From the IMG/VR virus record IMGVR_UViG_3300042888_002665: a DNA stretch of 64,000 bases; one strand, given 5' to 3'. Position numbers and translations under genes: made by a program. This DNA comes from a virus. Below are positions 6,531-32,847 of the stretch, one piece after another. Positions within the stretch are counted from its first letter, which is position 1. Every line of letters begins with the position of its first letter. The notes beneath the pieces are model-generated. The model saw only the letters and a program-made list of their open reading frames with translations. It was not told where the DNA came from and made no database searches.

Positions 6531-6533
6531 AAA

Positions 6534-6650
6534 TGGGGGATTGAAAAAGCCCGGCCCCCGTCCGTCCAACCAACGATTTGGCCCACGCGCAGTTCTTATG
6601 GGATGCTTAATGGTGATTTCGATCTAGCTGCCCTGCAGAACAGACTAGCG
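6534..6650 (-). ncRNA. GC-rich putative structured RNA between the tRNA-like element and tRNA(CAU)
   Basis: GC-rich island in an AT-rich genome; stems CTAG-CTGTTC/GGGCAG-CTAG, CCCA/TGGG and GGGGG/CCCCC. Confidence 0.4.
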
Positions 6651-6655
6651 GTATG

Positions 6656-6833
6656 CTGTAGTGGGTGGATTCGAACCACCATAGGGCAATTAGGTAAAGG
6701 ACAATAGCGCTTGCAAGCTGGTGGTCTACCCCGATATCCTTACTTTATTTCGTTATTCCCCGCCCCCGAGACAGGAGGGTGCGTATGCCTCAGATTAGAG
6801 ATACTATCTCTTTTCTTCTTTCGCCACACTACA
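6656..6833 (-). ncRNA. 178-nt tRNA-like RNA (GUC anticodon) with insertions in the D-loop and variable arm
   Basis: acceptor TGTAGTG/CACTACA, D-stem GCG/CGC, anticodon arm CCCTC-CTGTCTC-GGGGG, T-arm GGTGG-TTCGAAT-CCACC; 44-nt D region, 82-nt variable region. Confidence 0.7.
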
Positions 6834-6839
6834 ATTTAT

Positions 6840-7256
6840 TTACTTTAAATCTAACTCTAATTGATTACTTCCTGTCGTTGGTTGTTGTTGTGGTAATGTA
6901 GATGTATAACTCCAATTAGAACCACTAGGATTCCACAACGTCGTTGTAGATGGATTATATGTAATAGTTCCACCACTTCCGGTTGCCACCGTCAATATTC
7001 CACTAGTTGTACCACAATGTATCTTATATGGATTAAATGGGTCTGATGGGTATGGTTGGATAAATGGTATTGTTTGTATTGGTGCTGAATTTGGTGTTCC
7101 CCATCCACCTTCACCAATCGGAGAACCATAATCAGGGCAGTCTTTAATTTTGTCCAATTCCGAAACAATGGTTTCCCATTGCTTCGGTGTTGGTCCTTCT
7201 TCATTTACTGCTTTAGTAAATCCTTTAAGCCAGAATATAAATTGTTCCTTATTCAT
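6840..7256 (-). CDS. hypothetical protein, Pro/Thr-rich C-terminus
   Basis: MNKEQFIFWLKGF...W..I N-terminus typical of small phage proteins. Confidence 0.65.
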   Translation of the reverse strand: MNKEQFIFWLKGFTKAVNEEGPTPKQWETIVSELDKIKDCPDYGSPIGEGGWGTPNSAPIQTIPFIQPYPSDPFNPYKIHCGTTSGILTVATGSGGTITYNPSTTTLWNPSGSNWSYTSTLPQQQPTTGSNQLELDLK

Positions 7257-30383: not shown

Positions 30384-30545
30384 ATGCCATTATTAGCAAT
30401 CTCATTATTAATTAGTACATTATTTAGCGTAGTTTTAGTCAAATTTGACAATACTGAGCGGAAATCAAAACAACCCATCTCTAACCGCAGACATACTGGT
30501 GGAAGAAACGGGTTGTTAAATATTAATAAAGAAGTAATAGATTAG
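30384..30545 (+). CDS. possible small membrane protein (53 aa), the only plausible plus-strand gene
   Basis: MPLLAISLLISTLFSVVLVKF...; sits in a gap between minus-strand genes with an A-rich upstream region. Confidence 0.3.
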   Translation: MPLLAISLLISTLFSVVLVKFDNTERKSKQPISNRRHTGGRNGLLNINKEVID

Positions 30546-30559
30546 TAAAAACGTTATAC

Positions 30560-30907
30560 CTATAATGTTATAGGTTCTATTTTAATGCGCTCTAATGAAT
30601 CTTTTTCAATGATTTGTTTTAGCGCTTTAATTTTCTTCTTAGTTTGAGTAAGATCTTTTTTATGTTGGATTAATTTATCATCAGTTTTTTTCTCTTTAAA
30701 CCAACTAGCGGCAAAATCAGTTTTTTCTGTTTTATTTGCTTCATCCCATATTTTACGATATTCAAGTGCTTTAATTTCAGCATTGAGTTTCTGCTCCATA
30801 CCTAATTCAGTACCTAATTTTTGTCTGTAAAATGTCATGTCTTGACTAGGCATCGGACCTCCAACGGCTAATCCCAGCATTATAAGTAATTCTTTTAAAT
30901 CTAGCAT
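30560..30907 (-). CDS. hypothetical protein (N-terminal hydrophobic segment, coiled coil)
   Basis: ORF track; Lys/Glu-rich helices. Confidence 0.6.
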   Translation of the reverse strand: MLDLKELLIMLGLAVGGPMPSQDMTFYRQKLGTELGMEQKLNAEIKALEYRKIWDEANKTEKTDFAASWFKEKKTDDKLIQHKKDLTQTKKKIKALKQIIEKDSLERIKIEPITL

Positions 30908-30910
30908 AAC

Positions 30911-31042
30911 TTATCCTTTTAGTAATTGTTTTTTATTATCGTTGCACTCACATCTACATTTAGGGCAATCAAATGCTAATAGAGTACAAATACATCCTAA
31001 ACCAAATCCAGCCAATGAGGCAATTGCAATTGTTGTTATCAT
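30911..31042 (-). CDS. small Cys-rich membrane protein (43 aa, not in ORF track)
   Basis: MITTIAIASLAGFGLGCICTLLAFDCPKCRCEC...; ATATTTAT just upstream. Confidence 0.5.
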   Translation of the reverse strand: MITTIAIASLAGFGLGCICTLLAFDCPKCRCECNDNKKQLLKG

Positions 31043-31057
31043 AATAATAAATATTTG

Positions 31058-31129
31058 TAGCCCCAACGGGAATCGAACCCGTGACTCATCCGTGAAAGGG
31101 ACGTGACTTAACCGCTTGTCGATAGGGCC
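31058..31129 (-). tRNA. tRNA-Glu (UUC)
   Basis: cloverleaf; anticodon arm CGTCC-CTTTCAC-GGATG; GGTTCGATTCC. Confidence 0.92.
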
Positions 31130-31136
31130 ATTACTG

Positions 31137-31209
31137 AGCTTCCGGTCGGGGTCGAACCAACGGCCTGCTGATTACAAGTCAGCTGCTCTACCATCTGAGC
31201 TACGGAAGC
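31137..31209 (-). tRNA. tRNA-Thr (UGU)
   Basis: GCTTCCG/CGGAAGC acceptor; CTGA-CTTGTAA-TCAG. Confidence 0.93.
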
Positions 31210-31212
31210 AAT

Positions 31213-31318
31213 TTAGGAAAGTAGAAGATGGGTGCGTGGACATCTACTTTTATGATTGGCATTTCTAACCGATCGTACCCGCCCTTCCTACAGTTAAAGG
31301 ATACATCCCAATCAACCT
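31213..31318 (-). ncRNA. putative structured RNA between tRNA-Ser and tRNA-Thr
   Basis: TAGGAAG/TTTCCTA closing stem, hairpin AAAGTAGATG/CATCT-TCTACTTT, TGATTGG/CCAATCA pairing. Confidence 0.4.
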
Positions 31319-31321
31319 ATG

Positions 31322-31406
31322 AGGAGAGTGAGGGATTCGAACCCCCGGTCCTGTTACAGACAATAGTTTTCAAGACTACCTCGTTCGACCGCTCTGACAA
31401 CTCTCC
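31322..31406 (-). tRNA. tRNA-Ser (UGA)
   Basis: GGAGAGT/ACTCTCC; TAGT-CTTGAAA-ACTA; long variable arm. Confidence 0.92.
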
Positions 31407-31446
31407 TTACATAATAAACATAATCAGGAAATCTTTTATTTCCTAG

Positions 31447-31521
31447 AGTTGAGTGCTGGATTCGAACCAGCGATTTTGTCGTTTTGCAAACGAGTGCGTT
31501 TGGCCACTCCGCCAACTCAAC
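31447..31521 (-). tRNA. tRNA-Cys (GCA)
   Basis: GTTGAGT/ACTCAAC, U73 discriminator; TCGT-TTGCAAA-ACGA. Confidence 0.9.
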
Positions 31522-31526
31522 TTATG

Positions 31527-31597
31527 CACGTCCTAAAGGATTCGAACCTTTATCATCGCTTTTGGAGAGCGGTATGCTACCATTGCACCAAGGACAT
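31527..31597 (-). tRNA. tRNA-Trp (CCA)
   Basis: ATGTCCT/AGGACGT, G73; CGCT-CTCCAAA-AGCG. Confidence 0.88.
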
Positions 31598-31601
31598 AAA
31601 T

Positions 31602-31628
31602 AAAAAACCCCTAACTTGTGATTAGGGG
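31602..31628 (-). terminator. intrinsic terminator (attenuator) directly upstream of the tRNA array
   Basis: CCCCTAA-TCACAAG-TTAGGGG followed by T6. Confidence 0.85.
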
Positions 31629-31657
31629 CCGATTTAATATATTATACGTTATCTATA

Positions 31658-31720
31658 CTATACCCCTATCCTAGCTGTTTCCTGCCAAGTCGAATTACAA
31701 TATGTAGATGTTGTTTTCAT
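31658..31720 (-). CDS. putative leader peptide MKTTSTYCNSTWQETARIGV (20 aa)
   Basis: ATG 5 nt after an ATATTTAT motif; its last codons (ATAGGGG) are complementary to the terminator 5' arm. Confidence 0.65.
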   Translation of the reverse strand: MKTTSTYCNSTWQETARIGV

Positions 31721-31740
31721 TTCGTATAAATATATTTACT

Positions 31741-31944
31741 CTAATCTTTCTGTAATTCTTGTTTTAATTTTTCTAGGTATAAAATACCATCCATTAATTC
31801 ATCTTGGGCGTGATTAATCCAATCAACTTTCTCTAAATCAGTACGATCTAAATCAGTACCGTATTTTTGGTTTCCCATACGAGCTCTACGCTCAAATTTA
31901 GCAATAATACTTGCTACTACTGTGTCTACTTTAAATTGATCCAT
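31741..31944 (-). CDS. conserved small phage protein
   Basis: RARMGNQKYGTDLDRTDL...WINHAQDELMDGILYLEK. Confidence 0.75.
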   Translation of the reverse strand: MDQFKVDTVVASIIAKFERRARMGNQKYGTDLDRTDLEKVDWINHAQDELMDGILYLEKLKQELQKD

Positions 31945-32173
31945 TGTGTCCTATAACTTGTTCTAATGATTTATAATTCATTTCTTCACCATGATAAAAT
32001 CCTAATTTGATATTATTATTATTGTCTTTAATAATTTCACTAAAACCATATCCTTCACATATAATTCTAATACCATAATTTGGTTTTAATTTATTTGCCT
32101 CTTCAATAATATCAAAATCCCACGGCATTTCGGGATCATAACTTTCACACCATTGTTTTGAAAAATCAGCCAT
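31931..32173 (-). CDS. hypothetical protein
   Basis: ORF downstream of a promoter motif. Confidence 0.6.
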   Translation of the reverse strand: MADFSKQWCESYDPEMPWDFDIIEEANKLKPNYGIRIICEGYGFSEIIKDNNNNIKLGFYHGEEMNYKSLEQVIGHNGSI

Positions 32174-32223
32174 AACTTTTATTTTTCCTAAATGTAATTA
32201 AGAAATACTTAAGAAACAAACTA

Positions 32224-32847
32224 TTATTTAAATGTAAATCCAGTTAATTTCTCTATTTGTGCTAATGGAACTTCGTTATTTTGAAATCCATCTGATGGGG
32301 ATAAGTCATTATTAAATAGATATGCATGCCATTTACCTGCTACCTGAACTACTTTCCAACATTGTGTAGGAACTGATACTAGACCAATTTTCTTTGCCTC
32401 ACCAATTGAACCACTCCATACTCTTACTTTTGAACTAATAGCGGCCCAATTTCTAGTTGCAGTTTCTAATGATTTCCAATCACCAGCATTTAATCTATGT
32501 GTTTGTGCTACCATGTTTGAATAATAGAAACACTCATCTTGTATTGCTTGTGTTTGGCAAAGATTATCAGCTGCAGGCATTACGTGTCCTCTATCGTATC
32601 CACTTTTTACATAATAAACCGCAATATTAGTTTCATCTACTAATTGTGGATCTGGTTTAAAATTGTCTTTACGTTTTAAAGGTGTTAGACAGCCTACCAT
32701 TGCTTTTGTTGTTTCCCATTGTACTAATACTGGGTATCTTTTTGATTTACTGAAATGTGTTGTATAGTTTGTGTGTTTGATTACTACAATGTCTTGTGCT
32801 GTTAAACCAAATGATGCGAGTAATAATAGTAATAATAATTTTTTCAT
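32224..32847 (-). CDS. DNA/RNA non-specific endonuclease (NucA/Serratia family), exported
   Basis: signal peptide; GYDRGHVMPAAD, FYYSNMVAQ...LNAG.W..LE. Confidence 0.92.
   Translation of the reverse strand: MKKLLLLLLLASFGLTAQDIVVIKHTNYTTHFSKSKRYPVLVQWETTKAMVGCLTPLKRKDNFKPDPQLVDETNIAVYYVKSGYDRGHVMPAADNLCQTQAIQDECFYYSNMVAQTHRLNAGDWKSLETATRNWAAISSKVRVWSGSIGEAKKIGLVSVPTQCWKVVQVAGKWHAYLFNNDLSPSDGFQNNEVPLAQIEKLTGFTFK

Follow-up and report, generated by a model that had tools for sequence, protein, structure and literature searches.

A probable leader-peptide transcription attenuator, with codons matching the downstream tRNAs, precedes a phage tRNA array

The viral DNA analysed here, hereafter the window, is a stretch of 64,000 nucleotides from the IMG/VR record IMGVR_UViG_3300042888_002665. 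All of its long open reading frames (ORFs) lie on the minus strand, and it encodes tailed-phage proteins, namely a tail sheath, a family B DNA polymerase, a DnaB-like helicase, a ribonucleotide reductase, GroEL and a thymidylate synthase. The nearest isolate by DNA polymerase is Microcystis phage Mel-JY01 (34% identity), which has a single tRNA gene and is uninformative. Near the middle of the window, the minus strand carries a 67-aa gene, a 20-codon ORF, a hairpin with a T-run and an array of five tRNA genes in the order Trp, Cys, Ser, Thr and Glu; after the array, a 43-aa ORF and then more genes follow on the same strand. The features of the locus are:

31721-31756, minus strand: upstream flank, with the end of the 67-aa gene, a weak sigma-70-like hexamer pair (31756-31729) and an AT-rich box before the ATG
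31658-31720, minus strand: leader ORF, ATG at 31720 and TAG at 31660-31658, 20 sense codons
31684-31709, minus strand: segment 1, 5' half of the leader hairpin, with its partner at 31675-31651 in the full-length minimum-energy fold
31662-31670, minus strand: segment 2, predicted antiterminator strand GAUAGGGGU, within ORF codons 17-20 and ending 1 base before the stop codon
31635-31660, minus strand: spacer hairpin within the antiterminator loop, 31660-31654 paired with 31641-31635
31598-31630, minus strand: intrinsic terminator, comprising segment 3 (31630-31621), a loop of 5, segment 4 (31615-31606) and a T-run (31605-31598)
31526-31597, minus strand: tRNA-Trp (cca)
31446-31521, minus strand: tRNA-Cys (gca)
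31321-31406, minus strand: tRNA-Ser (tga)
31136-31209, minus strand: tRNA-Thr (tgt)
31057-31129, minus strand: tRNA-Glu (ttc)

The leader ORF starts 20 bases after the stop codon (31743-31741) of the upstream 67-aa gene. Its codons 3-15 make up the variable sensor part, and its codons 16-20 are invariant and form the antiterminator strand. Segment 2 (31670-31662) pairs with 31629-31620 through 9 pairs and one bulge, with a calculated energy of -11.5 kcal/mol for the antiterminator duplex versus -12.8 kcal/mol for the terminator hairpin. The terminator stem has 10 pairs, and the T-run ends exactly at the first base of tRNA-Trp. This leaves no room for a promoter between the terminator and tRNA-Trp, so that tRNA-Trp and tRNA-Cys can be made by read-through only. 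The leader region as a whole folds better than 200 of 200 shuffled sequences (z = -3.95). These results agree closely with an earlier, sequence-based reading of the locus (the original prediction): the 20-codon minus-strand ORF at 31720-31658 was borne out, all five tRNA genes placed after the terminator are present at 31597-31057, and the proposed complementarity between the last leader codons and the 5' arm of the terminator was recovered by folding as 31670-31662 with 31629-31620. The strong terminator it had set at 31628-31602 is real, with a stem of 10 pairs instead of 7.

Rfam scans returned only tRNAs and weak antisense plastid models in the region 30500-32500 (E up to 1), and six tRNAs and nothing else in the whole window at gathering thresholds. 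Several further elements were observed around the tRNA genes. The 43-aa ORF (30911-31042, minus strand) begins 15 bases past tRNA-Glu, and read-through would co-transcribe it with the tRNAs; its N-terminal half is hydrophobic, its tail is Cys-rich with CxxC-like spacing, and it had no PHROG match. The 110-base spacer between tRNA-Ser and tRNA-Thr (31210-31320, minus strand) is a conserved element with two stems, one around TTGATTGG/CCAATCA and the other around AAAGTAGATG and its complement. It has neither an Rfam match nor a T-run. A clear homologue lies at L103:1600-1728, before a Glu-Thr-Asp block of distant phages with a 29-codon leader (see below), and another at L020:6036-6145. The spacer between tRNA-Cys and tRNA-Ser (31407-31445, minus strand) contains a 7-pair hairpin (AGGAAAU...AUUUCCU) without a T-run, at the site where a second promoter had originally been proposed near 31422; it may be a processing signal instead. 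Elsewhere in the window, ~300 non-coding bases upstream of a lone tRNA-Met (6531-6840, minus strand) have a G+C content far above the 32% of the genome and contain the tRNA T-arm-like sequence GGTTCGAATCC. ARAGORN and Rfam made no call for this region and its fold was not better than that of shuffled sequences (z = +1.28); the region may hold what is left of a tRNA gene, decayed or interrupted, or another RNA.

Related uncultured contigs were retrieved by means of the neighbouring nuclease gene and DNA patterns, and seven leader variants were compared (the window, the L064 group, L006/L063, L072, L067, L068 and L070). All share a common 5' flank, the last five codons and the terminator, and are strongly divergent in the centre. 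In all seven, the ATG is nevertheless retained, the frame survives a 3-base indel and the stop codon, be it TAG, TAA or TGA, stays in place. Such an alignment of related loci had been suggested as a check in the original prediction, and in it the ORF frame, the stop and the antiterminator are conserved and the codons follow the tRNA set.

We then scored codon coverage against a null of 29,079 same-length windows of real phage coding sequence. The leader of our window has codons for 5 of 5 array tRNAs, as do 0.32% of the null windows (P = 3.2 × 10−3), confirming the original claim that codons for all five tRNAs are present; 8 of its 19 codons are cognate, a value matched by 0.67% of the null windows (P = 6.7 × 10−3). 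A cruder test by amino-acid kinds at the window locus alone was not significant (p = 0.19). Codons without a cognate array tRNA are those for Tyr, Gln, Asn, Lys, Ala, Arg, Ile (ATA), Gly and Val. Among the relatives, leader codons cover 7 of 7 tRNA kinds in L007 (P = 5.2 × 10−4), 8 of 8 in L072 (P = 3.5 × 10−5), and 8 of 9 both in L006 (P = 2.9 × 10−3) and in L068 (P = 2.2 × 10−3), these per-locus P values not being independent since the loci share common ancestry. Coverage in L067 is 4 of 5 (P = 0.21), and every test for that locus was non-significant.

The arrays behind the variants differ by whole genes, with tRNAs for Tyr, Pro, His, Ile, Gln, Asn and Ser (gct) coming and going. The His codon CAT is confined to the two variants with tRNA-His in the array, the codon AGC occurs in L068, whose array has tRNA-Ser (gct), and Pro codons are found in both variants with tRNA-Pro, plus one without. 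Three variants have no Glu codon despite a tRNA-Glu in the array. In these close relatives, the sequences thus suggest that leader content tracks changes of the array in part. Through loss, neither leader nor terminator is left in two other close relatives, L008 and L020, which still have tRNA genes; the module is therefore dispensable.

The array site itself is variable. Comparison of the window (31057-31597) with L006-L009, L012, L020, L067, L068, L070 and L072 revealed that tRNA content shifts by whole genes, from 5 to 9 or more tRNAs, though the flanking genes are 95-99% identical. Most relatives at ~90% identity have no tRNAs at this site. Judged from these sequences, it is a hot spot of tRNA gain and loss.

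More diverged homologues extend the pattern. In phages whose nuclease is ~65% identical, the array is larger (13-14 amino-acid kinds) and follows a 29-codon ORF and a terminator whose 3' arm is the same as in the window. These 29-codon leaders (L105, L106 and L107) cover every amino-acid kind of their own array, and the kinds missing from them (Ala, Lys and Tyr, with Ile or Ser in some) are all without a tRNA gene in the array (Fisher p = 0.007 for L105, 0.018 for L106 and 0.001 for L107). Codons ATT (Ile) are confined to the 29-codon lineage with tRNA-Ile (gat). Scanning for the 3' arm of 16 bases that these terminators have in common gave 110 viral stretches, with 25 new loci that have a tRNA within 150 bases. 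At 23 of the 25, a small ORF ends 38-49 bases before the terminator, a spacing common to all leader families; the remaining two, L146 and L203, have a similar terminator and a normal gene end before tRNA-Met, with no leader, and served as controls.

Leaders lengthen with their arrays: where the array serves 19-20 amino acids, they have 31, 39, 47 or 52-53 codons, and leaders of all these lengths include every one of the 20 amino acids. The probability of this by chance is 2.8 × 10−4 for 31 codons, 4.1 × 10−3 for 39, 1.9 × 10−2 for 47 and 3.5 × 10−2 for 52-53. Only 8 of 554 small ORFs of the same DNA have such a composition, and 6 of these 8 are the leaders. A protein search with the 53-aa leader yielded 24 clusters of 62-100% identity, and the full set of 20 amino acids is present in 24/24 of them. 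These homologues do not vary in the His, Trp, Met, Phe and Tyr columns and mostly have a single Cys, located at position 10, 17, 20/21 or 29. As far as alignments can tell, this mobile Cys is a signature of selection for presence, not position. Across 12 representative loci, 150 of the 153 amino-acid kinds of the arrays were found in the leader.

The leaders of L134, L136, L171, L183 and L105-L107 are also alike in their last seven residues (consensus L-E-D-T-D-V-G), although these lie after segment 2; this shared end may stem from the nested spacer hairpin or from the nascent peptide acting at termination. We found no convincing further leader/terminator module in the internal gaps of one larger array, and a loose pattern search for segments 2 and 3 in viral contigs gave mostly chance matches without nearby tRNAs. 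In cultured-phage records, DNA searches with the window region and with the leader region of L157 returned tRNA matches only, and protein searches of cultured phages with two leaders returned no match.

Folding predicts the mutually exclusive 1:2, 2:3 and 3:4 pairings of trp-type attenuators in every leader family. In the full-length fold of the window leader, segment 2 pairs with the 31709-31684 region and the terminator forms. Likewise, the predicted full-length minimum-energy folds of 10 of 10 representatives pair segment 2 with an earlier ORF segment. Segment 1, which is located at codons 8-11 in the window and at codons 3-5 in most relatives, is accordingly modelled as an anti-antiterminator. 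When the transcript was cut before segment 4, the antiterminator folded in every family and was absent in both controls (L146 and L203). Segment 3 varies between CCCCU and CCUCU together with AGGGG and AGAGG in segment 2, and segment 4 stays GGGG. At this one position, the aligned sequences thus point to a compensatory change that is specific to the antiterminator.

In a ribosome-footprint model of the window leader, a ribosome at codons 2-15 gives the antiterminator a probability of 0.67-0.98, compared with 0.02-0.27 for one at codon 16 to the stop. In the 29-codon family, stalls at codons 9-18, the variable part, shift even the full-length equilibrium to the antiterminator. With ribosome masks, full-length equilibrium folding is uninformative for the window family, since the terminator forms there almost every time; the terminator of the E. 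coli trp leader behaves likewise. The ribosome-free cut transcript of the window also prefers the antiterminator, and termination without translation therefore needs segment 1 to capture segment 2 first. For leaders of 47 codons, segment 2 stays exposed when the ribosome sits on the stop codon, and termination would have to rely on recapture by segment 1, i.e., on the re-formation of 1:2. The kinetics of the switch are not decidable by folding.

Signals for initiation differ among the phages. The AT-rich box directly 5' of the leader ATG is kept in 7 of 7 leader variants. A sigma-70 consensus scan found 25 sites in comparison to 26.3 expected in shuffled sequences, and the window has no excess of the AT-rich box (4 occurrences against 3.1 expected). 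The promoter-like motif originally proposed before the leader therefore did not hold up, since both sigma-70 sites and AT-rich box occur at chance frequency, though the box is conserved, and we dropped the promoter claim for the window leader. Shine-Dalgarno (SD)-like motifs precede 4 of 58 window genes (ORFs of at least 100 aa), compared with 9% of random positions. The near-absence of SD motifs is typical of Bacteroidota hosts. Together with a G+C content of 32.5%, their rarity points to a host that does not use SD motifs, as in Bacteroidota, and the host is probably not a proteobacterium. Consistently, no SD motif is present before the leader in the window family and its near relatives, as before most of their genes. 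The 31-codon leader family belongs to phages with an SD motif on about half of their genes, and its leader has an SD motif too. This family also has a sigma-70 promoter matching the consensus at 11 of 12 positions, and the ~170 bases from this promoter to the terminator hold nothing but the leader ORF.

A conserved non-coding block was observed ~100 bases upstream of the leader ATG in L105, L106, L107 and L183, which have 29- or 39-codon leaders. It contains a promoter-like pair (TTGAAA, 17 bases, TATTAA), and a ATATATATTA box lies 4-6 bases before the leader ATG in the same loci. The closeness of this box to the ATG raises the possibility that the 5' leaders of these mRNAs are very short or absent.

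Substitution patterns provide further signs of translation. In the 29- and 52-codon families, dN/dS is 0.15-0.5. The ORF frame usually carries more synonymous differences than either of the other frames, and this excess is clearest in the same two families. The window's own small family has few differences, with dN/dS at or above 1 in 3 of 9 pairs, and shows no consistent purifying selection by this measure. From these comparisons, we infer that the leader ORF is probably translated.

Taken together, we consider it probable that the module is a ribosome-mediated (leader-peptide) transcription attenuator placed before phage tRNA genes. The original prediction of trp/his-type attenuation of the array gains support from the conserved frame, the match between codons and array, the covariation and the footprint models, as far as sequence comparison and modelling can carry it; its suggestion that the switch mainly controls Trp and Cys was not supported. 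In the proposed mechanism, transcripts arriving from upstream would carry the short ORF with its sensor codons, which are read by the tRNAs of the array. A ribosome that reaches the end of the ORF would cover segment 2 (31670-31662), segments 3 and 4 would form the terminator, and transcription would stop at 31598, one base before tRNA-Trp. If a charged tRNA were scarce, the ribosome would stall at a sensor codon and leave segment 2 free to pair with segment 3, no terminator would form and RNA polymerase would read into the tRNA genes. The new phage tRNAs would then relieve the stall, a negative feedback that would make the module a homeostat for tRNA supply.

Stalling would thus be what decides read-through. 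Each sensed amino acid has only 1-5 codons in the leader, which implies low sensitivity to mild starvation; such sparse sensor codons would be expected to respond best to the near-total loss of one tRNA species, the kind of loss brought about by anticodon nucleases and related defences. The natural trigger would presumably be the loss of host tRNAs, either by the breakdown of host RNA during infection or by tRNA-cutting defence systems, and a link to anti-phage tRNA nucleases is plausible. A broader reading, which we judge to be evenly balanced, is that phages of several lineages and host phyla use a 'roll-call' leader peptide, with at least one codon per array tRNA species and up to all 20 amino acids, that evolves with the gain and loss of tRNA genes and would switch the whole array on when any tRNA is lost, be it to tRNA-cutting immunity or to the breakdown of host RNA, and off once phage tRNAs have restored decoding.

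Other explanations must be weighed against the same data. The leader could be translated and the switch functional, yet report overall translation capacity, be it the availability of ribosomes, the speed of elongation or the coupling to RNA polymerase, and not the supply of array tRNAs. Few codons per amino acid, and large leaders holding all 20, would let any slowdown be sensed, and some of the amino acids in the window leader have no tRNA in its own array. We nevertheless regard this as unlikely: reduced arrays pair with reduced leaders, the losses in the 29-codon leaders are confined to kinds without tRNA genes, and codons for His, Ile and Ser (AGC) come with the tRNA genes that match them. 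Moreover, a general sensor needs neither every amino acid nor a Cys that is moved rather than lost.

We give still less credence to an ordinary terminator of the upstream operon, in which case the ORF would be a chance frame or the gene of a micro-protein with its own function and the tRNAs would arise by leaky read-through. Conservation of frame, stop position and codon set, but not of the peptide sequence, would fit poorly with this, and so would the all-20 composition in 24/24 homologues, the covariation of the 3' end of the ORF with the terminator arm, and the 31-codon family, in which only the ORF lies between the terminator and the family's own strong promoter ~170 bases before it. It does accommodate the placement of all genes on one strand with the ORF 20 bases after an upstream stop, the similar terminators before tRNA-Met without a leader in L146 and L203, and the relatives L008 and L020, which manage without the module. 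The strong structure of the leader (z = -3.95), and 29-codon-family substitutions of which some preserve base pairs, could instead reflect a switch that works without translation and responds to a ligand of the RNA, for instance uncharged tRNA in a T-box-like manner or a phage or host protein, with the frame as a structural by-product. Structure, however, explains neither the 3-base indel nor a stop kept at one position, and leaves unexplained why dN/dS is below 1 only in the ORF frame, why a ribosome-binding motif is found only in phages that use such motifs, and why all 20 amino acids are present. As no Rfam family, T-box included, was matched at E up to 1 either, we hold this to be very improbable.

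As a proposed leader-peptide attenuator, the module resembles those of enterobacteria (trpL, hisL, leuL and pheL, and the multivalent thrL and ilvL) in its short ORF with regulatory codons, its exclusive 1:2, 2:3 and 3:4 pairings, the intrinsic terminator right before the regulated genes, and an antiterminator that, in the models, is blocked once the ribosome reaches the ORF end. In logic, it is closest to the multivalent leaders of thr and ilv. In contrast to these systems, which control biosynthetic enzymes and use runs of one to three amino acids, the targets here are phage tRNA genes, and 5-9 amino acids are sampled, up to 20 in relatives, with few codons each. Furthermore, the regulated product, tRNA, would itself be what the sensor consumes. 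Attenuation of a component of charged-tRNA supply is known from the phenylalanyl-tRNA synthetase operon pheST with its pheM leader and from His leader peptides before hisS paralogues in bacilli (PMC2965389); those leaders, however, control synthetase genes, sense one amino acid and target no tRNA gene.

T-box riboswitches, which stand before tRNA-charging genes, likewise sense tRNA status through a terminator/antiterminator switch. They bind uncharged tRNA directly via a specifier codon and the T-box sequence, without translation, unlike the window leader with its conserved ORF; identity with a T-box was rejected, as the Rfam scan of 30500-32500 (E up to 1) gave no T-box match. In drug-sensing leaders such as ermC, ermB and cat (e.g., PMC8274638), a stalled ribosome on a short ORF also remodels the downstream RNA, but these leaders sense a ribosome-bound antibiotic via a specific nascent peptide and act mostly on translation, whereas in window-type leaders the peptide sequence is free and the codon set constrained. 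Studies on phage tRNAs as counter-measures to tRNA-cutting defences (PMC10264068, PMC11555353 and PMC11464382) give a motive for supplying tRNAs when those of the host are lost, and appear to concern the tRNAs themselves. In the literature searched, which included few subscription journals, we found no description of leader-peptide control of tRNA genes or of the regulation of tRNA arrays. The parts and the logic are known from trp/his-type attenuators; what appears to be new, going by the literature searched, is the tRNA-gene target and the design for many to all amino acids.

A comparable arrangement is present in the cultured Caulobacter phage phiCbK (L211; NC_019405, 47200-52800), where the annotated terminators directly before tRNA blocks follow small ORFs in which the amino acids of the respective block are over-represented. 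A 45-aa ORF rich in Ser, Leu, Pro and Lys and a terminator are followed by tRNAs for Pro, Pro, Lys, Lys, Leu, Leu, Leu, Ser and Ser; an ORF rich in Phe, Val, Ile and Gln and a terminator are followed by tRNAs for Phe, Val, Ile, Ile, Val, Gln and Gln. The wiring is unlike that of the window, as the strand pairing with the terminator 5' arm in the gp335 module comes after the stop codon. Being a cultured system, phiCbK is suited to experiments.

The reason why phages carry tRNA genes has been debated for decades. A codon set that mirrors the array implies that these tRNAs are expressed on demand, when decoding of the corresponding codons fails, which agrees with a recent view of phage tRNAs as substitutes for host tRNAs that are destroyed in the course of infection or by defence nucleases. 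In annotation, leader ORFs of 20-53 codons are missed or labelled hypothetical, yet one can predict from their content on which tRNAs a phage relies. Leaders that combine all 20 amino acids with a sigma-70 promoter could also serve as ready-made compact sensors of tRNA or amino-acid supply. If the attenuator is real, leader-peptide attenuation would extend to tRNA genes, to viruses and to sensors of many or all amino acids. If the roll-call reading also holds, it would be the first known supply-and-demand control of tRNA genes and a natural sensor of the whole tRNA pool.
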